Origin: Patescibacteria group bacterium
GTDB taxonomy: Bacteria > Patescibacteriota > Patescibacteriia > XYB2-FULL-38-15
Assembly: GCA_041653675.1 (NCBI GenBank)
Contig: JBAZEY010000003.1
Span: 13,284 to 77,283 of the forward strand
Length of the DNA stretch: 64,000 nt
Reading direction: 5' to 3'
The position numbers and the translations under genes were made by a program. The notes below the pieces were generated by a model that saw only the letters and a program-made list of their open reading frames with translations, was not told the DNA's origin and ran no database searches. Shown here piece after piece: positions 10,901-49,465 of this stretch. Numbering within the stretch: position 1 is the first letter of the stretch; each line of letters begins with the position of its first letter.

Positions 10901-13900
10901 TCTTAATTTTGGCGGATATTTTGAAGCAAGAGGTGACCATAGCTGGAGCTTCGGAGTTAAGGGATATCTTCCGAATAGTGTTGACGGTAAGGCAGTAGTC
11001 GGACATGCTGCGGAAACGACATCAACAAATTATGGCGGTTGGTTTCAATCAGATGGCGCAACGGGCATTGGAGTTTATGGTAAATCAACTTATACATCAA
11101 CGGCGACTGTTAATTATGGCGGTTGGTTTAGGGCAGACGGTCTGGCGGGTCGCGGCGTTTATGGCGAAACGACCACTGTGGGAGCAACCATTACTCACGG
11201 CGGCGATTTTTGGGCGGCGAGTACGGGGACAAGTACAAGTGGCGCGCGCGGCGTAGCAACTGGCGCTGGAACGGTTTATGGCGTTGAGGGTCTTGCTCAA
11301 AGTACCGGCGCGGTTACAAACTTCGGCGGCTATTTTACTGCTAGCGGTGAGACTGGCCGCGGCGTTTATGGCATGGCTGACAACACTGCCGTTGCGGCAA
11401 CCAACTATGGCGGTCACTTTACGGCCGCGGGTGCAGGTGCCAACACTACAGGCGTTTATGGTGAAGGCAGCAGCTCCGGCGCGGTTACAAATTATGGTGG
11501 TCGCTTTATCGCTGCAGGTGAAACAGGCATTGGCGCTTATGGCAATGCGACTTCAACTGGCGCGACAGTTAACTATGGCGGAAAATTTTATGCTGGAGGT
11601 TCGGGAGGAGCATACGGCGTCTATGGCGAAGCCAACAATGTTTCCGGAACAAACTATGGCGTCTATGGCAAGGTAACTTCTGGTTATGCTGTTTATGGTG
11701 ACCACGGAACAGTTTTTGGTTATTTGGCTGATAAAAATTATGGAGTTTATGGCCAATACAGCGCGACTCAGTTTGGCTATATAGGCGATTCAACTTATGG
11801 TGTTTATGCCCGTGGGACGATTGGCGTTTATGGAACAGACGGAACAAGATATGGACAATTGGGAACGGGAAGTAATGGTGTGTATGGTTATTATGACGCC
11901 ACGCATTATGGTTATATTGGCGGCGCAACCAATGGTGTGTATGGCACTGGCGGCACAGGCGAAGGCGTGCGCGGCGAAGCAACGACTGGTTATGGCGTTA
12001 TTGGTTTAGCTAGCGATACCGGCGCGGTCACAAATTATGGCGGATATTTTTCAGCGGCCGGCGATACTGGTCAAGGCGTTTATGGAACAGCTCCTGACGC
12101 TGGCGCGGTTATAAACTATGGCGGATATTTCTCTTCCGCCGGTACAGGCACCGGCGCGACCGGCGTCCTTGGCACAACTGCTGCCGCTGGTACGGTTTAT
12201 GGCGTTCAAGGAAAAGCGACGAACACGGGCGCTGTCACAAACTACGGCGGATATTTCTTGGCGTATGGCGACACGGGCCAAGGTATCTATGCCGGTGGCA
12301 TGGATACCGGCGCGGTCACAAATTATGGCGGTTATTTTGAAGCCGCTGGCACAACTGGCCGCGCGGTTTTTGGTGCGGCTCTGGCAACCGGAGCGTCAAC
12401 TGCGTATGGTGGATATTTTACATCGGCAAGTGATACTGGCCGCGGCGTTTATGGCGCAGCGACTGATACCGGCGCGGTTGTAAATTACGGCGGATATTTT
12501 TCTTCTGCCGGCACGGGCACTGGCGCAGCCGGCGTTTATGGCACAAGCGCTGCCACGGGAACGGTTTACGGAGTGCAAGGTTACGCTTCAAACACAGGCG
12601 CTTACGAAAATTATGGCGGTTATTTTGTCGCCAATGGCACAACTAGTCGCGGCGTTTATGGTCAGGCCAATACTTCTGGCGCGACTGTAAGTTACGGCGG
12701 TTATTTTTCATCTTCTAGTACTGGCGCAGGCACAGCTGGCGTTTACGGTATAGGCGCCGGCGCGGGTACGGTTTATGGCGTTACTGGTTTAGCTAGCAAT
12801 ACCGGCGCGGTTACAAATTATGGCGGCGTTTTTTCGGCCGCTGGCACAACTGGCCGCGCGGTGTATGGCGAAGCAAGTAGCTCGGGGGCGACAGCGAACT
12901 ATGGAGGTTACTTTACGGCAGCCGGAACAGGTGGCGCTCGAGGCGTCTTTGGTACTGCCAGCGGTGCGAGCGGCACCAATTACGGAATTTACGGCAGCGT
13001 AACTTCTGCAACAGGCTACGCAGGTTATTTCACCGGCGGTTACGGCGTCTACGCGAGTTTGGCGCATATTGCCGGAACCGGAGCGGGCGGAGAAGAGCTT
13101 GACGTGGAAGGACAAATCCAGTTTGATCTTGATGGTACAACCGATACATTAATTGGTGTTTGTAAAAGCGTGGCTGATGGGGCGGGCGTGGAAGCTGATG
13201 TAGAATTCCGTGATTGTACTTCAACGCCTTCCGATATTGCCGAATGGTATGATACAACTGGCACTGAGGCCGGGGATGTTGTTGCGGCAACCGACGACAC
13301 AGTTACTTTCCAAGGTGAAATGTATGATCCATTAACTGGCTTGCCGCTCGGCACACAAGAAACTATTACGGCAACAATTTTGACTCCCTCATCAGAGCCG
13401 TATCAAAAAACACTCCTTGGCGTAGTTTCTACAAACCCTTATGAATCTTTTGGTAAGGGCGTGATCGATGTTTCACATTTGCCAAATCCAATAGCTGTTG
13501 TTGGCCGTGTGCCAACTAAAGTTTCCACTGAAAACGGCGTCATCCGTCCGGGCGATCCGATTACTTCTTCATCAGTTACCGGCGTGGGCATGAAAGCAAC
13601 TAAACCAGGCATGATTATTGGTTACGCGGTTGATCACTATTCTGGCGCTGGCATTGGAACAGCTTTTGTTAACATTAATCCAGGCTGGCATTCTGGTTTT
13701 GCTATAAATACCGACGGAGTGATTTCTTTATTTGATGATGATTTTACTTTTAATACTTCCGGCATAGCTGATGGAATAATTCAGGGATATAATTCCAAAG
13801 GCTTGGCGTTCCGCGGATCTGGTTGGGACGGTGCCGCGGCGCAAAATATAGAAATGAAAATTGGTAACGTTGTTACGGACGCGTCAAATTATAAATTATC

Positions 13901-17929: not shown

Positions 17930-18059
17930 TAATTGTAAAATTAGAGATGGAGATTAAGTGAAATTTGCTTTAAAATAAAGGATAAAGCCAATTTCAGGTG
18001 ACCTTCAACTTTTGGAGAACAACCGTTCCGCGAGAGGGCGGAACAAGGAGGATTTAGTG

Positions 18060-18665
18060 ATGAAGACGACGATGATCGCGATGGTGCTTGTTTCCGTGTT
18101 CGCGACTGGCTGCTGGGATAGCTACCAGAACTACGGCGAAGACACTTCGCCCCTCGCGACTTGCGAGGTCGAGGTGACGACGAACGTGGTCGAGGTGGTG
18201 ATCACGGTGGACGGCGTCGTGATCGGTGGCGTTGCGGAACTCGCGACGGGCATGCACACTTTCGCTGCTACGGCTCCCGGGTATTACCCGGCAAGCGTGG
18301 TTGCGGAAGTAACCGAAGCATGCGCTCCGGTCGAACTCCAGCTCTTCCCGGATCTCGCCGGTGACTACGATCTCGTGCTACACAATAGCATCTATGATCG
18401 GCTGCTGCTCCACCTCGACCAGGATGAGGAAGGCAACCTCGTCGGCTACGACTGGTACACTGATGATCCGGGACACAGCTTCCAGGATTTCACCGGCACT
18501 GTTTCGTTCGATGGAGAAGTTCATCTCCTCTCGGACGATTCGGTCCGGCTGAATCTCACTGGCCGCTGGACTCCTCCGGGAATTGGTGGCGTCAGCCGTA
18601 TCGTCGGCAACTGGACCTCCGCTGCGGGAGGCGACGGAGACTGGCTCGCCGAGTCGCGACCGTAG
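18060..18665 (+). CDS. GC-rich lipoprotein with a PEGA-like domain
   Basis: RBS AAGGAGG 10 nt upstream. Lipoprotein signal MKTTMIAMVLVSVFATGC. The segment VVITVDGVVIGGVAELATGMHTFAATAPGYYPAS fits the PEGA pattern. About 60% GC against a roughly 40% background. Confidence 0.6.
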   Translation: MKTTMIAMVLVSVFATGCWDSYQNYGEDTSPLATCEVEVTTNVVEVVITVDGVVIGGVAELATGMHTFAATAPGYYPASVVAEVTEACAPVELQLFPDLAGDYDLVLHNSIYDRLLLHLDQDEEGNLVGYDWYTDDPGHSFQDFTGTVSFDGEVHLLSDDSVRLNLTGRWTPPGIGGVSRIVGNWTSAAGGDGDWLAESRP

Positions 18666-18676
18666 GTTACGACTCG

Positions 18677-18736
18677 AACCGGCATCTGGCAGAAATCGTG
18701 AAGAACGATTCTGTCGGATGCCGGTGTTTTTATTTC
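18677..18736 (+). terminator. Long imperfect hairpin plus T-run; copy 1 of a duplicated 58-nt element
   Basis: ccggcatctggcagaaatcg tgaagaa cgattctgtcggatgccgg followed by tgtttttatttc. Near-identical to 20278-20336. Confidence 0.6.
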
Positions 18737-18834
18737 AGAAAATCTAAAGAAGCACGCCTTGACTTTTGAGACATAATATATATGATAACGGCATAGATGG
18801 TCGGCTAGAGGTAGCCGACACAAGGAGGAGAAAG

Positions 18835-20184
18835 ATGAAAAAGGGGAACGGAAGGATCAAGGGGCTCTTTTTGATCGTCATCGCGACGATCGCGATTCTC
18901 GCCTATGCCGCTTGTGGCGACGACGAGCAGTTGTGTCCCAGCGCAGGGGACTGCATGGGACGGGAGTGCGGGCCGGATCCGGTTTGCATGACATCGTGCG
19001 GTGCATGCTCAATCGGAGAAGCATGTTCGGCGGACGGGATATGTATGCCGGACTGCGTGTCCAACTGCGCCGGCCGCGAGTGCGGATGGGACCCGGTCTG
19101 CGGCAACATGTCTTGCGGGACATGCCCGGCGGATCGGCCCAACTGCAATGCCACTACGGGGACTTGTTCGACTGATGGCCCGGATTGTCCGGCAGACCGC
19201 GACTGCGCCGGCCGCGAGTGCGGCCTCGATCCAATCTGCAGCGTTTCCTGCGGGACGTGTTCGGGCGGTGAGACGTGCAGTTCATCAGGAAGATGTGTTT
19301 GCGCTCCCAACTGCTCCGGCCGCGAGTGTGGGCTTGACCCAGTTTGTAGCGTCTCCTGCGGGACGTGTTCAAGCCCAGAGACATGCACTCCATCTGGAAC
19401 GTGCAACTGTACCAGGAACTGCGCCGGCCGTGAATGTGGTCCCGATCCGATTTGTGGCGTTTCCTGCGGCTCGTGTTCAGCTGGCTCATGCACCACGACG
19501 GGCACGTGCACCACGTGTTCATCCGGCGCAACGGAGTCGTGCGCCAATCTTTGCGGTTCGGCTGGCACGCGGAGTTGTAGTGTTTCGGGCGAATGGGGGC
19601 GGTGTCAGGGTGGGACTGCTCTGGTTCCTGTGGCTCTTACGGATGACACCTACATCGACAACGACCCCCCAACTGTCAACCACGGAACCGAAGAATTCGT
19701 GATCATAGGAAAGGGCGTTGCCGCTGACCCACGTCGCCTAGCATTCTTCCGTTTTGATGCGGATTTGGATACGTGGCGGGCGGAGGGCGCCACGTCGATA
19801 ATTCAGGCCGACCTGAGCGTATACGTGAGTGACCGCTTAGGCAGTCAACTTGAACTCTATGGTCTCTCAAATACGACCGGTGGTACTTGCGTGTGGAATG
19901 AAGATACACTGACGTATTACACCCAAGTCACCGCAGGAAGCACGAACTGCTATCCGGACCCGCTTGGCTGGGTCTACCCCGACATTTCGATGATTGTGGA
20001 TTACTCGATGGGCTACGTGGATATCACGGCGTATGTCCAGTGGCTTTGGGACGGCGCGGAGAACGACGGCTTCATGTTGACGAACAATTCGGGGAGTTCC
20101 ACTCCGTTTGCACGGTTGATTATCAACAGCACCGAGAATTCCCGGGATCCACCGAGCGTTTTGGTGAGAGTATCCTGCGAATAG
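18835..20184 (+). CDS. GC-rich secreted/lipoprotein: about 7 Cys-rich repeats (C..GRECG.DP.C..SCG.CS) plus a C-terminal DNRLRE-like domain
   Basis: RBS AAGGAGGAG. Signal LFLIVIATIAILAYAAC. Repeats such as DCAGRECGLDPICSVSCGTCSGGETCSSSGRC. The C-terminal domain carries the DNRLRE-family landmarks (DDTYIDNDPPTVNHG..., RLAFFRFDADL, WNEDTLTYYT, VDITAYVQWLWDGAENDGFML, INSTENSRDPPSVLVRV). Confidence 0.6.
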   Translation: MKKGNGRIKGLFLIVIATIAILAYAACGDDEQLCPSAGDCMGRECGPDPVCMTSCGACSIGEACSADGICMPDCVSNCAGRECGWDPVCGNMSCGTCPADRPNCNATTGTCSTDGPDCPADRDCAGRECGLDPICSVSCGTCSGGETCSSSGRCVCAPNCSGRECGLDPVCSVSCGTCSSPETCTPSGTCNCTRNCAGRECGPDPICGVSCGSCSAGSCTTTGTCTTCSSGATESCANLCGSAGTRSCSVSGEWGRCQGGTALVPVALTDDTYIDNDPPTVNHGTEEFVIIGKGVAADPRRLAFFRFDADLDTWRAEGATSIIQADLSVYVSDRLGSQLELYGLSNTTGGTCVWNEDTLTYYTQVTAGSTNCYPDPLGWVYPDISMIVDYSMGYVDITAYVQWLWDGAENDGFMLTNNSGSSTPFARLIINSTENSRDPPSVLVRVSCE

Positions 20185-42167: not shown

Positions 42168-42173
42168 ATATTG

Positions 42174-42202
42174 TTGACATTTTTTAATTTATTTGGAATA
42201 AT
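42174..42202 (+). promoter_or_regulatory. Sigma70-like promoter (TTGACA-17-AATAAT) driving the GC-rich element between uvrA and uvrB
   Basis: ttgaca ttttttaatttatttgg aataat. Confidence 0.45.
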
Positions 42203-42475
42203 TTTGTTATACGGTTTTGGTTTGCCACTTCGGCGAACCACCGTCCGAGGAAAGAAGGAGGTGGGAAGAACGGAGATGGAGAAGCGGTTCTCGCGGTTCG
42301 GCCTGCTGGACAAGGGCCAAGCGACGGCGCAGTCGGCGTGATGCGGTGATCCCGCTGGAGGTGAATGTCGGGGCACCCCTGACACGGGACGGAATTTCGT
42401 CGGTCAGCGGCTAACGGCCGCAACAGAAATGTGAGCCGGCGGGAAATTCTGGCAGCTCCGCAAGTCAAACCTTTC

Positions 42476-44500
42476 CTATGGCCCCGGGACGTGCTTCGGC
42501 GCGTTTCGGGGTTTTTTTAATTCTTTAATTTCATCCCGTAGTAATGCCGCCAGTTCGAATTCAAGCGCTTGCGCCGCGGCCTTCATTTGTCCTTCCTTCT
42601 CTTTTATAATTTCTTCAATATTTTTTCCTTTTTCGCCGATAACATCCAGATCCAAAATATTTTTAACTTTTTCTTTTGAAATTTCTTCGCCGACAATATC
42701 TTTTATTTTCTTTTGGATCGTCTTCGGAGTGATGCCGTGTTTTTTGTTATATTCCGTTTGTCTTTTTCTTCGGCGTTCGGTTTCGTTGATGGCGCGTTCC
42801 ATTGAGCCAGTCATTTGATCGGCATAAAGGATAACTTGGCCGCGAACATTGCGGGCTGCTCGCCCGATTGTCTGGATGAGTGAAGTTTCACTTCGCAAAA
42901 ATCCTTCTTTATCCGCGTCTAAAATTGCGACAAGCGTCACTTCCGGTAAATCCAGTCCTTCGCGCAATAAATTCACACCAACTAAAATATCAAATTTTCC
43001 TCGGCGGAATTCAGTCAAAATTTTTATCCGGTCCAATGTTTGCACTTCGCTATGAATATAATTAACTTTGAATTTTTTCTCCGCGAGATATTCGCTTAAA
43101 TCCTCGGCCATTTTTTTGGTTAGAGTTGTGACAAGGACGCGTTCGTTTCGTTTCACGCGATCGGCGATTCGTTCCATCAAATCATCAACCTGGGATTTTT
43201 CATCTTTGTTTTTTGGTGTGATAGGTTTAACAATAATTTCCGGGTCAATAAGGCCGGTTGGCCGGATTATTTGCTCAACGATTTGTCCACTTTTAGTTAA
43301 TTCATAATCAGCCGGCGTGGCTGAAGTATAAATTGTCTGTGGCACTCTTTTTTCAAATTCACTAAATTTCAGCGGCCGGTTGTCGGCGGCGGAAGGCAGG
43401 CGAAAACCAAAATCAACCAACGCCCGTTTCCGCGAAGCATCGCCTTCGTACATTCCGGAAAGCTGCGGCACGGTGACGTGTGATTCATCAATTACCATTA
43501 ACCAATCCTTATTTTTTCCAAAATAATCGAGCAAAGTTTCTGGCGGTTCGCCCGCGGCGCGGCCAGAAAGATGCCGTGAGTAATTTTCAATTCCGTGGCA
43601 GTAGCCGACCTCTTTAATCATTTCCAAATCATAATTTGTCCGACGTTCCAATCTTTCCGCTTCAAGCAATTTTCCATTTTTATTAAAATATTCCAAGCGG
43701 TCTTTTAATTCCGCTTTGATAGTTTTGAAAGCTCGTTCGCGTTCCGGGCCGAGGGTGACAAAATGTTTGGCTGGAAAAATCCAGACGTCGGTCGGTTCAT
43801 CTTTTATTTTTCTTGTCACCGGATCAATAGCAAAAATTTTCACGATTTTTTGTGCGCTTGATTCCACTCGATAAATAATTTCTTGGTTCACGGGCATTAT
43901 TTCTAAAGTTTCGCCACGCAAACGAAACTCGCCACGCTTTAAATCGGAATTTGTCCGATTGAATTGCATGGTGATGAGTTGGCTTAACAAATCAGTGCGG
44001 GTGATAACTTGATCTTTGGCCAAATGTAAAACTATTTTTTGATAAGTTTCCGGAGCACCCAAGCCGTAAATGCAAGAAACCGAAGCGACAATAATCACGT
44101 CGCGTCGTGTTAAAAGCGCCTGGGTCGCGGCGTGGCGGAGGCGATCGATCTCATCATTGATCATCGCTTCTTTTTCAATATAAGTGTCGGTCCGCGGCAA
44201 GTATGCTTCGGGCTGGTAGTAATCATAATAAGAAACAAAATATTCCACGGCATTGTCCGGAAAAAATTCGCGGAATTCATTGCAAAGTTGCGCCGCCAAA
44301 GTTTTGTTGTGAGCAATAACGAGCGTGGGTTTATTGATTTTCGCGATAACATTCGCCACGGTAAAAGTTTTTCCTGAACCAGTGACACCCAAAAGTGTTT
44401 GATGGGCGTGATTTTTTTTCAAACCATTAACAAGTTCGGCGATTGCTTTGGGCTGATCGCCGGCGGGTTTAAATTTTGATTTTAATTTGAATTTGTCCAT
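42476..44500 (-). CDS. uvrB: Excinuclease ABC subunit B
   Basis: Helicase motifs (GVTGSGKT, DESH), beta-hairpin and a C-terminal UVR domain. Confidence 0.95.
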   Translation of the reverse strand: MDKFKLKSKFKPAGDQPKAIAELVNGLKKNHAHQTLLGVTGSGKTFTVANVIAKINKPTLVIAHNKTLAAQLCNEFREFFPDNAVEYFVSYYDYYQPEAYLPRTDTYIEKEAMINDEIDRLRHAATQALLTRRDVIIVASVSCIYGLGAPETYQKIVLHLAKDQVITRTDLLSQLITMQFNRTNSDLKRGEFRLRGETLEIMPVNQEIIYRVESSAQKIVKIFAIDPVTRKIKDEPTDVWIFPAKHFVTLGPERERAFKTIKAELKDRLEYFNKNGKLLEAERLERRTNYDLEMIKEVGYCHGIENYSRHLSGRAAGEPPETLLDYFGKNKDWLMVIDESHVTVPQLSGMYEGDASRKRALVDFGFRLPSAADNRPLKFSEFEKRVPQTIYTSATPADYELTKSGQIVEQIIRPTGLIDPEIIVKPITPKNKDEKSQVDDLMERIADRVKRNERVLVTTLTKKMAEDLSEYLAEKKFKVNYIHSEVQTLDRIKILTEFRRGKFDILVGVNLLREGLDLPEVTLVAILDADKEGFLRSETSLIQTIGRAARNVRGQVILYADQMTGSMERAINETERRRKRQTEYNKKHGITPKTIQKKIKDIVGEEISKEKVKNILDLDVIGEKGKNIEEIIKEKEGQMKAAAQALEFELAALLRDEIKELKKPRNAPKHVPGP
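42482..42518 (+). terminator. Rho-independent terminator ending the GC-rich transcript (overlaps the last uvrB codons on the opposite strand)
   Basis: ccccgggacgtgcttcggcgcgtttcgggg followed by ttttttt. Confidence 0.55.
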
Positions 44501-44630
44501 ATACGCAAAAAATCCCCCAAGATTCCTCCTCGCTGGGAGGAGTGGGGCGCGTCTGTAAAGAAACGGCTGTCTAGCCGTTTGTTATTGTGAAGCCATCATA
44601 ACATGGACTGAGCCTATTGTCAACTCGTAC

Positions 44631-44659
44631 TTGACAAATGATATTTTCTGGCCTAAGAT
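44631..44659 (+). promoter_or_regulatory. Promoter (TTGACA-17-TAAGAT) for the GC-rich cNMP-binding gene
   Basis: ttgaca aatgatattttctggcc taagat. Confidence 0.45.
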
Positions 44660-44700
44660 GGGTAATCACGAACAAAAAGGGAGGGAAGGGAGGACTGATC

Positions 44701-45555
44701 GTGAGTGAAGAAACGAATGGTTGCCAGGGTAGTGAGCCCGTGGTCGAGGACAGATCTGAAAATTGCGTCCCTGGCGTCGAAGAAGACGGGGGAAGCAGCG
44801 AAAGGCAGTGCGATACTCTTGAGGGTTTGACGCAGTCGAAGGCGCTTGCCGCTTTTCTCGGGCAGCTCAAGATTGTGGAGATCCCTCCGGGCGGACGCCT
44901 TTACCAAGAAGGCGACCTCATCTCGCAAGTCTGCTACATCGTGAGCGGCAGGGTCGAAGTCAAGGCGACCGGTGAATTGATCGCCACAGTAGAAAAGGGC
45001 GAGCTGCTTGGGCTGGAAGAATTTCGTTACCGCAAGGAGAGCCCGAAATATACCCAAGAAGCGGTAGCTGTTCTGCCAACCTCGGTTGTCTGGCTGGATA
45101 ACGAAGGCCTAAGGACAGTCTTGGACTTGAACGCGGATTGTTTGGCGGCCTACGTTCGGCTACAGGCCAGAGTGAAGAGGGCGATCGAAAAGAAGCTCGG
45201 CCAGCTCAAGATAGACAAGAGCAAGCTGGAGGTTAGGGTTGCCCGACTGGGGGTAGCTTTGGGAGCAACCCAGGAGCAGCTCGTCAAGCTGCAAAAGCCG
45301 CCGCAGCCGCCTCCACCGCCGCGCAAACCTCTTCCATCAACAGCACTTCTTGGAAAGTTGGATGAAGCGCGTCGGGTTATTCGCGAGATGGGCCAGCTTT
45401 TCGTCGCGAGGGCCACAAACCTCAAGAAACTGCTCGTGGCTTTGCACGAGTTCGCCACGAAACATCCAGACTGGGCCAAACAGGAGGATTTCGTCGCGTT
45501 CAAGAAGAGCTTCGAAGGGCTTGTAGAACGTGATTCTCAATTCAAGGTGCCGTGA
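44701..45555 (+). CDS. GC-rich cyclic-nucleotide-binding domain protein with coiled-coil and Pro-rich segment
   Basis: GTG start with RBS AGGGAGGA. cNMP-binding fold (YQEGDLISQVCYIVSGRVEVKATGELIATVEKGELLGLEEF...). PPQPPPPPRKP linker. Confidence 0.6.
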   Translation: MSEETNGCQGSEPVVEDRSENCVPGVEEDGGSSERQCDTLEGLTQSKALAAFLGQLKIVEIPPGGRLYQEGDLISQVCYIVSGRVEVKATGELIATVEKGELLGLEEFRYRKESPKYTQEAVAVLPTSVVWLDNEGLRTVLDLNADCLAAYVRLQARVKRAIEKKLGQLKIDKSKLEVRVARLGVALGATQEQLVKLQKPPQPPPPPRKPLPSTALLGKLDEARRVIREMGQLFVARATNLKKLLVALHEFATKHPDWAKQEDFVAFKKSFEGLVERDSQFKVP

Positions 45556-45600
45556 AGCGGCACGAGCCGGACACTTTCAAGAGGTGTCCGGCATTTTATT
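45548..45600. terminator. Double hairpin bidirectional terminator
   Basis: gtgccgtgaagcggcac plus gccggacactttcaagaggtgtccggc followed by attttatttt. Confidence 0.6.
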
Positions 45601-45693
45601 TTATAACTTAATTATTAAATTTTTATAAAAAAATTCTGCCGCGGCTTGTGGCTTTGGCAGAATGGTGAAAACGATGGCGGCTGCTCGAGTTCG

Positions 45694-46449
45694 TTACCCG
45701 CAGCCGATTGGCGGGCACTTCACGGCAGTCCAGATTCCGAGGTTGTCGCCACTTGGCGAAACGATCGCTTCGCCCGTGACGTGCGTCTCGTCCGTAAAAT
45801 GGCCGACGTAACTTGTGCTGCCCGACGAGAAATTGATTTGCCGGCCATGGATCGTTGGCTCGTAGTAACTCGAGATGGCAGTAATGTCTCGGCCAGTTTG
45901 GCTGGCGTAGACGGCGACCGGAAAGGGGAAAGTTGCCCCGCTTAGTTCCCAGGCGCCTTCAGCGTTGATGACACTTTTCACGATGTGCGGCGCACTGCAG
46001 ACTTCCGGTTGGCAATCAACACAGCCTGCATCAATCGCCTCGCAGTCGTTCGTCACGCAAGCTGTGACAGTAGCCTCTGGTTCTGTATCACCGCCGAGGT
46101 CAAGAATGTCAGCCGTGGTTTGGACGAGCGTCATGGCTTCTCGCCGCGTTTCGATTGACGCTTCAATGGGTGCGAGACTCACAAGCGACGAATCGGAAAC
46201 GCGCCACTCCACGTCCTTGATCAGGATTCCATCGGAATTGTAGACGTAGGCGTGGAGTTTGTAGGCGTCGGCGTTCGTGGTGTCGCCGGTTGGCACGGGA
46301 GAAACGTTGGCTTCCGTGCTCGGAGTGCAATCCGAGACGATCGCCACAGCCATGGCGACACTCGAGTCGTTGGGACAGCGTTCGATGAACTCGTTCCGGC
46401 AGCCGAGCGCCATCACGAAAAGAACCGCAATCATCATCTTCGTTTTCAT
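45694..46449 (-). CDS. GC-rich lipoprotein, possibly Ig-like (Big_2-like) fold
   Basis: RBS TAAGGAGGA with promoter TTGAAA-16-TAAAAT on the minus strand. Lipoprotein signal MKTKMMIAVLFVMALGC. Multiple Cys pairs. Confidence 0.5.
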   Translation of the reverse strand: MKTKMMIAVLFVMALGCRNEFIERCPNDSSVAMAVAIVSDCTPSTEANVSPVPTGDTTNADAYKLHAYVYNSDGILIKDVEWRVSDSSLVSLAPIEASIETRREAMTLVQTTADILDLGGDTEPEATVTACVTNDCEAIDAGCVDCQPEVCSAPHIVKSVINAEGAWELSGATFPFPVAVYASQTGRDITAISSYYEPTIHGRQINFSSGSTSYVGHFTDETHVTGEAIVSPSGDNLGIWTAVKCPPIGCG

Positions 46450-46516
46450 CTGTATCCTCCTTACTGATTTTATTTTAACAAACTAAAAATAAATTTCAAA
46501 ATTTATAAAATAAAAA

Positions 46517-46560
46517 AAGGGGCTTCCGCGCGGCGTTACGAAACACCTTGCGGAAGCCCT
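46517..46560 (-). terminator. Strong Rho-independent terminator (minus strand)
   Basis: gggcttccgcaaggtgtttcgtaacgccgcgcggaagcccc followed by tttttttatttt on the minus strand. Confidence 0.7.
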
Positions 46561-47140
46561 TGGTCCCTTGGGAGTTATCCTCCAGATTTCTCCTTTGAAT
46601 CTCTCCCGGGAGTCCTTGGTCAGGCGCCCTTGCCCAACCTCATCGGGGAGTTAACCCCGTCTGGTAGCCCGTTTTTTCCCATCGGGCTCGGGGCGGCATT
46701 TTTAGACCGGAGTGACTGACATGCTAGCCAGCACGCGATCTTAACGAGGTAACCGCCGCTTTTCACTGCGTTTACGGCGCCGCGCTTGTGACGGCGATTG
46801 CAGCACCCCGACGGGTCTGCTGATTCTGGTCTTGGGGCGCATTCCATTTTGTCCCCAAAACTCTGGTTGCCCGTCCACCAGGGATCAGACGATTTATATT
46901 GCCGCGCCGTCTGCCAGGGCGCTTTAACCCTCCGCTCTGATCTCCTTCCCTTGGTAGCGAAGATGTGGAGCCGCCGGTTATCTACCTCAATCGAAGCACG
47001 GCTCCGATCGCGCCGTTTTGCGGGCACTGGTTATCTCCGAGCTCAAACCAATCCCGCCCCCGGGTAGACGAATTTATGTCCGCGCCAGCCTACCTTTGGC
47101 GCTCTGCCGATACATCCCCGTGCCACCACCTCCTTCTGTG
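46561..47140 (-). other. About 600-nt GC-rich non-coding block ending at the terminator
   Basis: No ORF with protein-like composition in any frame (only Arg-rich artefactual ORFs). Many local hairpins. It is contiguous with the GC-rich island and could be a structured RNA or a decayed coding remnant. Confidence 0.3.
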
Positions 47141-47473
47141 AAGAAAAACAAATTATTTATTTATCTTCATAGAAGGAAATAGGCGCAGAGAATTTTTAAG
47201 GTTAGTATAGATCTATTTTTTTGTCAAGAGTTTCGGAAAAAACAAAGAAAGGCCACTTGGCCCTCCTTGTTAATATATTTTAATATTAACTTTAAGAACA
47301 GCAGGAACAGCCTTTTAATCTCTTCGTGTGCTTCCGCAATTCTTTGCCCTTTTTGGTATTTTTAAGAGCGTGTTTTGTTCTGGCTTTCGCCGCGCTATTT
47401 TGTCCCATATTATTTAACTATTAATGATTTAATGAATTAATTTTGTCATATTGTCGGTAAGTCGTCAACTCCA

Positions 47474-47532: not shown

Positions 47533-48297
47533 ATGGAAAACGCTTTAATTACGATAGGCATAATCGTGGTGGCGATTATTTTAGCTTCCATCCGCCAGGT
47601 CAACCAATACCAGCGGGGAGTGAAGTTCACGATGGGGCGATATTCTGGAATTATGGCGCCGGGTTGGCGTTTGGTGATTCCCGTTTTTCAAACCGCTAGA
47701 AAAGTTGATATGAGAATCAAAGCGGTTGATGTTCCGGATCAAGAAGCGATTACTAAAGACAACATTTCTGTTCGCGTGAACGCCGTGATTTATTACAAAG
47801 TCCGCGACGCGAATCAAGTAATTATTGAAGTAGAAGATTTTGGTTATGCCACTTCTCAACTTGCCCAGACGACGATGAGAAACGTGGTCGGCGAAGTAAA
47901 TCTCGATGAGTTACTTTCAAGCCGCGAAGCCATTGCCGAGAAAATTAGAGAAATTGTTGATAAGGCCACAGACGCCTGGGGTATCGAAGTTCATTCCGTG
48001 GAATTGAAAGACGTGACTTTGCCGGAAGAAATGAAACGGGTCATTGGCAAACAGGCCGAGGCAGAAAGAGAAAAGAGATCAGTAATTATTAAGGCTGAAG
48101 GCGAAGTAATTGCCGCGGAAAATTTGGCCAAAGCCGCGAATACTCTAGCAACTTCCGACGGTGCGTTGCATCTTCGAACCTTAAGCACGATCAATGATGT
48201 AAGTTCTGACCAATCCAACACAATTGTTTTTGCTATACCGCTTGAAATTTTGAGAGCGTTTGAGAGGATAGGAAAAAAAGATAAAGATCAGGCGTAA
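47533..48297 (+). CDS. SPFH/band-7 (stomatin/prohibitin-like) membrane protein
   Basis: N-terminal TM, SPFH core (YQRGVKFTMGRYSGIMAPGWRLVIPVF...) and a coiled-coil C-terminus. Confidence 0.85.
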   Translation: MENALITIGIIVVAIILASIRQVNQYQRGVKFTMGRYSGIMAPGWRLVIPVFQTARKVDMRIKAVDVPDQEAITKDNISVRVNAVIYYKVRDANQVIIEVEDFGYATSQLAQTTMRNVVGEVNLDELLSSREAIAEKIREIVDKATDAWGIEVHSVELKDVTLPEEMKRVIGKQAEAEREKRSVIIKAEGEVIAAENLAKAANTLATSDGALHLRTLSTINDVSSDQSNTIVFAIPLEILRAFERIGKKDKDQA

Positions 48298-48390
48298 AAA
48301 TTTTTAGAAATAAAAGGTAGCCCCACGAAGGCTGCTTTTTATTTTGCAAAAGATATTGACAAAAAGAGTCGGAGGTGTTAAAACAAAAAC

Positions 48391-48550
48391 GGTGAGGCGA
48401 CTGTGTCCTTGGCTTACTACGTAAGACCGGGGCGGTCGAGGACCAAGCCGCGCGCGGCTAACTCACGAGGGCGGATCGGATGTGGTCCCGCGACTCCTCC
48501 ACGACGGGGTGTGCAGTTCTAGACAACCTGCCCCCCGTCACTTTTTTTTA
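48391..48550 (+). ncRNA. Candidate small RNA (about 160 nt, GC-rich) with its own promoter and terminator; class unknown
   Basis: Promoter TTGACA(48356)-17-TAAAAC. Nested hairpins. Terminator gacggggtgtgcag...ctgccccccgtc plus T8. No plausible ORF or RBS. Confidence 0.35.
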
Positions 48551-48595
48551 TCAAAAAAACGCTCCGATCACCTCGGGGCGTTTTTGTTTAAAAAT

Positions 48596-49039
48596 TTATT
48601 TTATTCCGCGTTCGTTAAAAAAATCAGTGTAGTGTTTGTCTAGAGAAATGACGTGGCGCAAAAGCCAGTCTATGGCAAAATCGGAAAGATCGTGGGCGAT
48701 TTTTTTTACGTCCGCGTTCGGACTTTGCGCTTTGGCTAAAAATTCTTTTATTGTTTCACGATAGCGATTATGTTCGGCAACGTGAAGTTCTTGCTCGGGA
48801 AATTTATATGCTTCAAAATAAGTTTCTTCAGAGGAAAAGTGGAGTGAGGCGTAATTGCTAAACTCAATTAAGCTCATTAAGATTTTTTCCTGACTGACCC
48901 CGTCCTGAATAGAGAGGACATCAATCTGATTTGCGAGATCGATATAACGTTTGTGTTGGTCGTCAAAAGTTTTTACGCCGACGCTGTAATTTTCGTTCCA
49001 AATAAAAGGCATATTTTTAAAATAAAGTTTTATTATCAA
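48596..49039 (-). CDS. Bacteriohemerythrin-like protein
   Basis: FxWxxxYSVGxxxFDDQHKRYI, HFSSEE, HxxxH and a C-terminal HV motif consistent with hemerythrin metal ligands. Confidence 0.65.
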   Translation of the reverse strand: MIIKLYFKNMPFIWNENYSVGVKTFDDQHKRYIDLANQIDVLSIQDGVSQEKILMSLIEFSNYASLHFSSEETYFEAYKFPEQELHVAEHNRYRETIKEFLAKAQSPNADVKKIAHDLSDFAIDWLLRHVISLDKHYTDFFNERGIK

Positions 49040-49192: not shown

Positions 49193-49465
49193 ATGGACAA
49201 GAGGTTCACGGATCTGACGCGCGAGGGAAGGATTCGACTGAGGGACTTCCTCCTGGCGCACGCCGAGAAGGGCGAGGAGGTCGTCGCGATCAAGGAGGTA
49301 CCGGTCGAAGGGAGGGCGCGTGTGGCCTTCGAGGAAGGCGAGCTCATCTGCGTTTCCCCCGTCTTCGTGGTCGAGGCGACCAAGAAGGAGATCTGGGTGT
49401 GCCACGCGTGGGACACCGAAGGGATTGTCCTCTGCCCCGATTACCCCTGCATCGTGCGGGTGTAG
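49193..49465 (+). CDS. GC-rich orphan small protein (90 aa), unknown function
   Basis: RBS GGAGAAGGAGGAGAGG then ATG. About 62% GC. Terminator ggccacctgaaacatggtggcc plus T-run at 49478-49515. Confidence 0.5.
   Translation: MDKRFTDLTREGRIRLRDFLLAHAEKGEEVVAIKEVPVEGRARVAFEEGELICVSPVFVVEATKKEIWVCHAWDTEGIVLCPDYPCIVRV

Follow-up and report, generated by a model that had tools for sequence, protein, structure and literature searches.

A GC-rich, fixed-position locus beside uvrB in a narrow Patescibacteria clade: a cNMP-fold gene, a predicted lipoprotein gene and a candidate large structured RNA

The Patescibacteria, or Candidate Phyla Radiation (CPR), make up a large share of bacterial diversity and are mostly uncultured; to our knowledge, almost nothing has been learned of their non-coding RNAs or of the genes that mediate their symbioses. 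Structured bacterial RNAs that run to several hundred nucleotides (nt) and lack an assigned function are likewise very few, as far as we know, and each has drawn substantial follow-up work. Small H-type pseudoknot aptamers are found in riboswitches, singly or in tandem, as in preQ1-II, SAM-II and guanidine-III, and hypervariable replacement loci with conserved flanks are represented by O-antigen and capsule loci and by phage-receptor genes. Large RNAs have been recognized in AT-rich genomes from intergenic regions that stand out by their length and GC content (PMC6429828; PMC8723152), and the RNA described here likewise occupies such a region. The stretch under study lies between uvrB and an SPFH/Band_7 gene in a 64,000-nt segment of a Patescibacteria group bacterium (GCA_041653675.1, contig JBAZEY010000003.1, forward-strand positions 13,284 to 77,283). 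This segment is called the window, and its numbering is used throughout. Bases 44650-47140 are 55-59% GC, against ~42% in the surroundings and as the mean of the window. The stretch probably consists of three independent transcription units (a gene for a protein with a cyclic nucleotide monophosphate (cNMP)-binding fold, a lipoprotein gene and an RNA gene) set in a fixed, fast-evolving accessory locus of a narrow, Falkowbacteria-like CPR clade.

In 300-nt windows, GC was 0.50-0.59 across 44500-47200 and 0.39-0.47 on both sides, and AT-rich spacers at ~45595-45640 and ~46455-46515 divide the stretch into three GC-rich blocks rather than one. Its left neighbor is uvrB (42476-44500, minus strand); to the right, beyond an open reading frame (ORF) of 38 amino acids (aa), is the SPFH/Band_7 gene (47533-48297). 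An earlier reading of the sequence (the original prediction) had recognized a pair of convergent GC-rich genes in the interval from uvrB to the SPFH gene and had assigned a promoter, a ribosome-binding site and a terminator to each. Both statements held, the first in GC windows and gene calls and the second in a consensus scan combined with a reading of the sequence. The two genes occupy the first 1.8 kb of the stretch and have GC of 0.56-0.57 against 0.43-0.44 in the flanks, an atypical composition of the kind expected of an island; their GC at third codon positions (GC3) is 0.64 and 0.67, compared with 0.41 for uvrB and 0.44 for the SPFH gene. The remainder had been described as a long non-coding tail. 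It is non-coding in our analysis as well, but it is not the tail of either gene: it forms a separate minus-strand unit upstream of the lipoprotein gene. An independent assembly, ENA contig L001, is 99.9% identical to the window over 15.4 kb and spans both junctions, and the gene order is repeated in 11 further assemblies, so that an assembly chimera is excluded. The window and L001 have 12 mismatches, eight of which are clustered in the 16 nt of 48893-48908, inside a hemerythrin-like gene.

Along the minus strand, the 38-aa ORF has its terminator at 47268-47245, and next come a TTGACA site, an RNA gene of ~680 nt (~47190-46510, 58% GC), a terminator hairpin and the lipoprotein promoter. The promoter-like site of the RNA gene (TTGACA-17-TAACCT, 47199..47227) was read from the sequence and falls below the scan threshold; its -35 element is perfect and its -10 element weak, and the corresponding sites are TTGACA-17-TATTTT in locus L008 and TTGACA-17-TATTCT in locus L023. 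The gene is composed of a 5′ domain (46884..47191) with helices P1, PK-A, P3, P5, P6 and PK-B, which is shared by the window, L008 and L023/L024, and a 3′ domain (46561..46883) found in the window and L008 and absent from L023/L024. It ends in an intrinsic terminator (46510..46560; GGGCUUCCGC...GCGGAAGCCC plus a U-run) that was recognized by folding and by alignment with L008. When compared with shuffled sequences, the fold of the minus strand had a z-score of -4.5 and that of the plus strand -3.6.

The L008 copy of the RNA is 85% identical to that of the window and includes perfect blocks of 51 and 44 nt, whereas in the neighboring lipoprotein and Band_7 genes of this pair of loci, identity at third codon positions is only 61%; the RNA is therefore under purifying selection. 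Insertions and deletions between the two copies measure 1, 2, 7, 10 and 22 nt, none a multiple of three, and the terminator stem is kept in L008 through five compensatory pairs. A third homologue, that of L023/L024, was reached by walking lipoprotein homologues; it matches the first ~315 columns of the window/L008 alignment (nhmmer E = 5.8e-50) and is then closed by a terminator of its own, so that a short form of ~370 nt exists in nature. Over 175 well-aligned columns, the L023 RNA is 81% identical to that of the window, with third codon positions at 51-65%. The region is thus conserved without a conserved reading frame, as is generally expected of a structured RNA. Within the RNA, at ~47127-47086 (minus strand), a 13-codon ORF (MYRQSAKGRLART) lies 13 nt behind a perfect Shine-Dalgarno sequence (AAGGAGGUG). 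It has 14 codons in L023 (MNRQSAKGRLARQT, with an in-frame 3-nt insertion), but it is cut to three codons in L008 while the nucleotides there stay identical, and we treat the ORF as incidental.

Minimum-free-energy folds computed independently for the window and L008 RNAs have ~11 helices in common at homologous positions, and every single-base difference within these helices preserves pairing (U.G/C-G or A-U/G.U). Nine helices were checked by script with L023 added; MAFFT did not align the two pseudoknot modules described below in register. P1 changes from U-A to C-G across the copies, and P3b from G-C to C-G and from U.G to C-G. P5 reads GGAGCCG/CGGCUCC in the window, GGAGCC/GGUUCC in L008 and GGAGUUGUC/GACAACUCC in L023, and P6 has three different sequences, each of which pairs. 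In all, pairing is kept through changes on both sides in P1, P3b, P5, stem S2 of PK-B and the terminator. Across the three-sequence alignment, 98% of cells were paired, against 40-52% when the partners were slid. Conservation independent of reading frame, helices kept where the sequence has changed and transcription signals of its own are the main basis on which we regard this element as a functional RNA.

Two modules of ~40 nt within the 5′ domain follow one pattern, in which a stem S1 (GCGCC/GGCGC) is interleaved with a stem S2 of 5-7 bp and the third loop carries AUAA(A/G)U, the topology of an H-type pseudoknot. In PK-A (47063..47102, minus strand; helices checked pair by pair), S2 is GGUAGGC/GUCUACC, and GUCUACC changes to GCCUGCC opposite an unchanged GGUAGGC, so that U-A becomes U.G and G.U becomes G-C. 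In PK-B (46886..46922, minus strand), S2 passes from CAGAC/GUCUG to CAGGC/GCCUG in L023, an A-U to G-C exchange. Each RNA contains the pattern two times, and the 3′ domain of L008 may hold a third, degenerate copy; a search of the 64-kb window and eight other loci yielded a single match outside the RNA, a chance one in an L007 coding sequence. Local self-alignment of the RNA scored 24; shuffled sequences averaged 17.2 (sd 2.4) and reached at most 29, so that this score carries no significance by itself, and the motif pattern search is the better evidence for two modules.

The position between the 38-aa ORF and the lipoprotein gene is itself variable. The RNA element is absent from L007, L015 and L026, and in L002 the slot holds a YfbR-like gene. 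In three other loci (L004:5601-5837, L005:5601-5819 and L025:3629-3856) it holds a GC-rich ORF of 72-78 aa on the opposite strand (MRREGKVEKTKLKRGDTLEF...), for which no Pfam family was found. At L016:749-857 only the RNA terminator is left, joined directly to a truncated 38-aa ORF, a state that looks like the product of a deletion between short CAAGAG-like repeats. This patchy presence marks the RNA as an accessory gene in a variable slot.

None of the 4227 models of Rfam 15, among them those of OLE, ROOL, GOLLD, HEARO, raiA, RNase P, tmRNA, group I/II introns and riboswitches, matched the window at the gathering threshold, and at E ≤ 5-10 only hairpin-type chance matches appeared, which differed between the window, L008 and L023. 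Twister-P5 was rejected, being below threshold in the window (22.8 vs 37.6 bits) and not reproduced in L008, and tmRNA was set aside after ARAGORN found none. Searches for further homologues by exact or degenerate patterns gave zero or chance matches in three viral scans, zero in two metagenome scans and, in one genome scan, chance matches in high-GC genomes only. The RNA thus appears to be previously undescribed, with no match to any Rfam family. As a tentative proposal, to which we give somewhat less than even weight, it may represent the first example of a hitherto undescribed class of large structured CPR RNAs with a ~300-nt 5′ domain, two tandem pseudoknot modules that bind a ligand or protein, and an optional 3′ domain, residing in a hypervariable locus of host or phage interaction whose GC is kept high by recombination-driven biased gene conversion. 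The RNA itself would be a stand-alone structured molecule that acts in trans and binds a ligand or a protein, encoded in a slot that varies by lineage.

The alternative that survives best, although we consider it unlikely, is that the RNA serves the lipoprotein gene in cis as a long leader, its tandem pseudoknot modules being aptamers and its terminator the expression platform. In all three lineages the lipoprotein gene comes immediately downstream of the RNA and is read in the same direction, a strong terminator precedes the lipoprotein ribosome-binding site by ~60-80 nt, and the tandem small pseudoknots resemble tandem riboswitch aptamers. The fixed position, however, may reflect a single ancestral insertion, and the lipoprotein gene has a promoter-like site of its own downstream of the terminator (TTGAAA-16-TAAAAT with TG, 46472..46499, minus strand; consensus scan) that is also kept in loci without the RNA. 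In addition, ~260 conserved, structured nt separate the modules from the terminator in the window and L008, and no alternative antiterminator pairing was identified. We treat the RNA as an independent transcription unit.

The setting of the locus was compared across related genomes. Loci were obtained by fetching the contigs of lipoprotein homologues (n = 32 proteins), and those compared with the window were L002/L003, L004, L005/L006, L007, L008, L009, L014/L015, L016, L023/L024, L025 and L026. The same arrangement, a lipoprotein gene convergent with a cNMP-fold gene next to uvrB, occupies the same site in 12 of the 12 lineages examined, window included (UvrB 87-95% identical). The side opposite uvrB is usually formed by a small ORF and the SPFH/Band_7 gene, and in one case by YibE_F. 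Absence of the pair from the site in related genomes, as expected of an island, was not seen among these 12 lineages. No integrase, tRNA junction or flanking direct repeat borders the stretch, where only AT-rich low-complexity repeats were found; the closest tRNA genes and a Xer-type recombinase gene lie at a distance of 5-6 kb, and L002 and L004 have that recombinase in synteny as well. When 1.84 billion representatives were searched exhaustively with HMMER for relatives of the cNMP-fold protein, no donor lineage emerged. A phage origin of the lipoprotein gene and the RNA was rejected, as neither had a tblastn or blastn match in 50,697 phage records.

Inside this fixed frame, the two genes diverge far faster than their neighbors. 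In DNA, the window and L005 agree at 83-92% of positions across uvrB and Band_7, at 47-75% across the lipoprotein gene and at 30-47% across the cNMP-fold gene, and the borders, near 44600 and 47430, are sharp; the corresponding protein identities are 95% for UvrB, 94% for Band_7, 56% for the lipoprotein and 29% for the cNMP-fold protein. Across lineages, the lipoproteins are 44-80% and the cNMP-fold proteins 20-66% identical. The window, L008, L007 and L014 have lipoproteins that are 76-80% identical and cNMP-fold proteins that are only 22-38% identical, and the best partners of the latter are found elsewhere (L014 with L002, 59%; L008 with L009, 66%). At least three allele types of the cNMP-fold protein are recognizable. 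Its residues 1-16 are nearly the same in the window and L005 and the remainder is ~29% identical and of different types, so that the gene looks like a mosaic in these two genomes. The simplest reading would be allele replacement by recombination in the conserved flanks together with diversifying selection, as at surface-antigen loci.

The raised GC appears to belong to the same locus. In 11 lineages, GC3 of both genes is 0.60-0.76, compared with 0.38-0.55 in uvrB and Band_7; in L026, whose genome has 36% GC, the values are 0.42-0.48 for the two genes and 0.22-0.27 for the flanks. The excess over the neighbors is about 0.15-0.3, L026 included. The offset in L026 thus tracks the GC of its host, which points to a locus-specific cause, since foreign DNA that had merely not ameliorated would not be expected to do so. 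Synonymous divergence of the flanks is ~0.7-0.8 per site (a Jukes-Cantor estimate from identities at four-fold sites). Slow amelioration after an old transfer is possible and compatible with the rates alone; it is disfavored because the L026 offset follows genome GC. We infer that the raised GC is a property of the locus, through GC-biased gene conversion at a recombination hot spot or through selection, rather than the trace of a recent import. Recombining bacterial genes tend toward higher GC3 (PMC4450053), and GC-biased gene conversion would connect the high GC of the locus with its high divergence.

The original prediction had suggested that the stretch may be an acquired signaling module, that is, a cyclic-nucleotide sensor imported horizontally and working with the lipoprotein. 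This we regard as improbable, more so than the leader reading of the RNA. In its favor, both genes have atypical GC3, both carry their own signals and adjoin in all lineages, and both are clade-restricted orphans. Set against this, the pair keeps its site and orientation across 12 related lineages of low GC (the prediction itself had named close homologues in such genomes as evidence to the contrary), neither mobility genes nor flanking repeats nor a donor were found, and the GC offset follows the host genome. Trees of the cNMP-fold protein and the lipoprotein are incongruent; the contact residues for cNMP are lost, as detailed below, and no cyclase is present among the called genes of any locus. 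The genes are convergent, separately transcribed and unequal in rate, and what appears to tie the two proteins together functionally is adjacency within a narrow clade only. An ancient transfer into the ancestor of the clade is possible. The GC-rich stretch is best described, from the sequences compared, as a fixed-position, fast-evolving locus with no sign of recent import, and it is in this frame that the two proteins are considered next.

The lipoprotein gene (45694..46449, minus strand) encodes 251 aa and ends in an intrinsic terminator that was read from the sequence (45622..45661, minus strand; hairpin TCTGCC...GGCAGA plus a T-run), the hairpin stem of which lies at 45661-45635 and encloses a loop too long for the consensus scan. 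Its assignment as a Cys-rich lipoprotein, proposed earlier, agrees with the N-terminus (MKTKMMIAVLFVMALGC), which consists of a signal peptide and an LGC lipobox, and with a total of 10 Cys. In 32 homologues of ~250 aa, one of them from a Candidatus Falkowbacteria genome, Cys17 is invariant and Gly16 nearly so, as expected of a lipobox, and the protein is predicted to be lipidated. The AlphaFold2 (AF2) model has a predicted local distance difference test score (pLDDT) of 87 and is made up of an N-terminal immunoglobulin (Ig)/BIG2-like sandwich and a small antiparallel β-barrel at the C-terminus. Cys131/136/146/151 and Cys245/250 are conserved and suggest disulfides. No Pfam or NCBIfam family matched; Foldseek returned weak matches to SbsC S-layer domains, fHbp, hemophilin, NHBA, FABP and a phage BIG2 protein. 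Taken together, the model is consistent with a surface-anchored, disulfide-stabilized lipoprotein, with an Ig-like domain and a small β-barrel, that may serve as a surface binding protein in contact with host, nutrient or phage.

The cNMP-fold gene is preceded by a sigma-70-like promoter site (TTGACA-17-TAAGAT, 44631..44659, plus strand) and followed by an intrinsic terminator (45566..45592, plus strand), both found by consensus scan. Its coding sequence (44701..45555, plus strand) begins with GTG at 44701 behind GGGAGGGAAGGGAGG, and the 284-aa product agrees with an independent gene call rather than with the 305-aa ORF. In a Pfam scan, PF00027 matched aa 80-163 of the 305-aa ORF with 31.6 bits (cut-off 27.5), and the family was marked in the orthologues of all loci, in some weakly. 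An acidic N-terminal tail precedes a β-barrel (~aa 45-145), a long helix (145-197), a Pro-rich linker (198-212) and a helical C-terminal domain (213-279). No helix-turn-helix or other DNA-binding family was found in Pfam at E ≤ 1. The proposed CAP/Crp-type fold with a long helix and a poly-Pro linker but no helix-turn-helix is therefore confirmed by Pfam, AF2 and PDB profiles, the helix tentatively. When a profile of 11 type-A members was searched against the PDB, matches were confined to the β-barrel and ended at ~profile position 170; the best were the cyclic nucleotide-binding homology domain (CNBHD) of KCNH channels and the heme/NO sensor DNR (E = 2e-8 to 8e-8), followed by PKA/PKG, PycTIR and CRP. 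We take it that neither of the two nearest solved relatives, KCNH CNBHD and DNR, binds cNMP. The last 90 residues had no match in Pfam, NCBIfam, PADLOC or the PDB, and the exhaustive HMMER search recovered only 18 relatives, seven of them full-length.

In cNMP-binding proteins, the Gly-Glu and Arg-Ser/Thr of the phosphate-binding cassette contact ribose and phosphate (E72 and R82 in CAP, E200 and R209 in PKA). Here, Gly104 and Ala121 are kept, the residue after the Gly is L/V/A/M rather than Glu, and in alignments the position of the Arg is taken by Pro115, or by K/T/I at 116 with a one-residue shift. With the contact Glu and Arg lost, canonical binding of cAMP or cGMP is unlikely, and cyclic-nucleotide signaling is doubtful. 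AF2, run on two input sequences, gave a poor model (pLDDT 58), but one in which the secondary structure can be read: the barrel leads into a helix of 50 residues, after which come a Pro-rich break (PPQPPPPPRKP) and, with better confidence (69-89), a helical hairpin. The fold would fit a cytoplasmic cNMP-homology protein that responds to another ligand or to none and signals by protein-protein contact rather than DNA binding; its long helix would probably dimerize and relay the signal across the Pro-rich linker to a small helical output domain that contacts a protein.

A further explanation, which we rate as very unlikely, is that the cNMP-fold protein is an anti-phage effector that senses a nucleotide second messenger in the manner of Pycsar or CBASS, which would account for its hypervariability. 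PADLOC models of PycC, PycTIR and TIR effectors do match it (E = 1e-7 to 3e-4), and the gene shows extreme divergence and allele switching. These matches, however, are limited to aa 47-181, the cNMP fold; the protein and its called neighbors in 12 lineages showed no cyclase and no TIR, transmembrane or nuclease domain, and the nucleotide-contact residues are not conserved. The least probable reading of all, that the region assigned to the RNA encodes a protein (a 135-aa ORF at 46620-47027) or is the decaying pseudogene of a GC-rich gene, has to its credit an annotation by gene callers and a 99%-identical ORF in a JGI contig, but long ORFs are expected in GC-rich DNA, the ORF had no Pfam match and no homologue outside the same strain among 5.8 billion proteins, it splits in L008 into pieces of 57, 68 and 93 aa in different frames, the indels are of the frame-breaking lengths given above, and perfect 44-51-nt blocks beside variable helices are not expected of a pseudogene.

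Several observations weigh against our interpretation of three independent units that include a trans-acting structured RNA. The anatomy of the locus, its synteny, the contrast in rates, the incongruent trees, the ORF-free conservation of the RNA and the lack of an Rfam match are directly supported; all statements of function are read from folds. The -10 element of the RNA promoter is weak in the window, and expression of the RNA is a prediction. The RNA occurs in three lineages only, and its 3′ domain in two. S1 of the modules is invariant in all six copies, so that the pseudoknot stays putative; of 34 pairs in the three sequences, only two have both partners altered, and the covariation score observed was equaled or exceeded by 85 of 500 shuffles. 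With three lineages, support from covariation is suggestive rather than decisive. As the 13/14-codon ORF is kept in the window and L023, the RNA could have a dual function. At a pLDDT of 58, the coiled coil and the C-terminal fold of the cNMP-fold protein are tentative, and GC-biased gene conversion is an idea rather than a result.

Other units of the window lie close to the locus or resemble parts of it. The 38-aa ORF (47292..47408, minus strand; MGQNSAAKARTKHALKNTKKGKELRKHTKRLKGCSCCS) is very basic, ends in CSCCS and forms the left border of the variable slot; it has its own promoter-like site and 80-87% DNA identity in every related locus that covers the site, it belongs to no Pfam family, and its Cys-rich C-terminus is lost in L008 and L016. 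A hairpin in the uvrB leader (44520-44545; CTCCTCCCAGCGAGGAGGA, minus strand) would pair the GGAGG ribosome-binding site of uvrB itself and could be a translational control element. In the uvrA-uvrB spacer (42168-42520, plus strand) is a GC-rich unit of ~300 nt that resembles an RNA gene, with TTGACA near 42174 and a terminator near 42478-42515 that overlaps the uvrB stop codon. It has 85% column identity with L004:9964-10300, is absent from L002, where uvrB and uvrA abut, and had no Rfam match even at E ≤ 1. Its GAGGAAAG and ACAGAAA strings recall, to our eye, CR-I and CR-V of RNase P, which makes a divergent RNase P RNA one possible identity of the unit. A third GC-rich intergenic unit, of ~180 nt (48298-48600, plus strand; TTGACA near 48357, terminator near 48520-48550), is ~70% identical to L005/L006 3640-3876 and had no Rfam match at the gathering threshold. 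At 49193-49465 (plus strand), a GC-rich (~62%) ORF of 90 aa has its own TTGACA promoter, a strong ribosome-binding site and a terminator; it has no Pfam family, its only counterpart among the compared loci is in L001 (same strain), and a kinship with the 72-78-aa ORF of the slot in L004 and L005 was rejected, the two being unrelated. Finally, a second GC-rich coding island (18012-20184, plus strand) contains two lipoprotein-like genes with GC3 of 0.72 and 0.64, the second with Cys-rich repeats of the CxxRECGxDPxCxxSCGxC type and a CBM96/DNRLRE domain; GC-rich, secreted, clade-specific genes thus recur in this genome.

The locus illustrates that a compositional island need not signify recent horizontal transfer, as the offset persists here at one site and follows the GC of the genome, together with extreme divergence and allele switching. 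Whether GC-biased gene conversion or locus-specific selection acts in bacteria is a question for which it offers a candidate test case, and within the clade it is a candidate for marking variation at the surface or in host interaction. A new RNA that repeats one simple module and occurs naturally in a shortened form would also be well suited to structure and ligand studies.

When compared with described systems, each component of the locus has a recognizable relative from which it departs. The cNMP-fold protein resembles CRP/FNR, DNR and the CNBHD of KCNH channels in its N-terminal, eight-stranded barrel followed by a long helix, which dimerizes in CRP. Unlike CRP/FNR, it has no winged helix, and in its place are the Pro-rich linker and a helical domain of ~70 aa without a Pfam or PDB match; the cassette Glu and Arg are absent, and the family is tiny and very fast-evolving. 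Its sensor fold is also similar to that of Pycsar effectors, in which a cNMP domain is fused to a TIR or transmembrane effector, but no such effector domain and no adjoining cyclase are present here, and the gene sits at a fixed site beside uvrB rather than in a defense island. The lipoprotein shares a lipobox, an Ig-like N-terminal domain and a small barrel with the group formed by fHbp, NHBA, hemophilin and BIG2/Ig-like adhesin or S-layer domains; it differs from these in that query-normalized TM-scores are ≤0.36 and identity is 8-16%, and in that its host is a CPR bacterium, which we presume to have no outer membrane. As a whole, the locus is like a hypervariable replacement locus in its sharp borders, in flanks that are >83% identical around an interior that hardly aligns, in allele types that ignore the flanking phylogeny and in the alternating contents of the slot. 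It is unlike O-antigen and capsule loci in that a sensor-like cytoplasmic protein, one lipoprotein and an RNA take the place of a biosynthetic cluster, and unlike hypervariable replacement loci in general in that all of its alleles share the raised GC.

The modules of the RNA resemble the preQ1-II, SAM-II and guanidine-III aptamers in their number and size (two, of ~40 nt), in stems of 5 and 5-7 bp and in an A-rich third loop. They differ from riboswitch aptamers in that no Rfam riboswitch matches them, they lie inside a much larger RNA, no expression platform is evident, and S1 is without covariation, so that the knot is putative. The RNA as a whole is like the large ‘ornate’ RNAs OLE, ROOL, GOLLD and raiA (PMC12286853; PMC10861870) in being several hundred nt long, GC-rich relative to its genome and built of many helices, and it shares with them highly conserved unpaired stretches, a promoter-like site and terminator of its own and a patchy distribution. 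It is unlike OLE, ROOL, GOLLD and raiA in that it matches none of them in sequence or structure and is known from only three lineages of one CPR clade, and also in its modular 5′ and 3′ domains, with a natural short form that dispenses with the 3′ domain.

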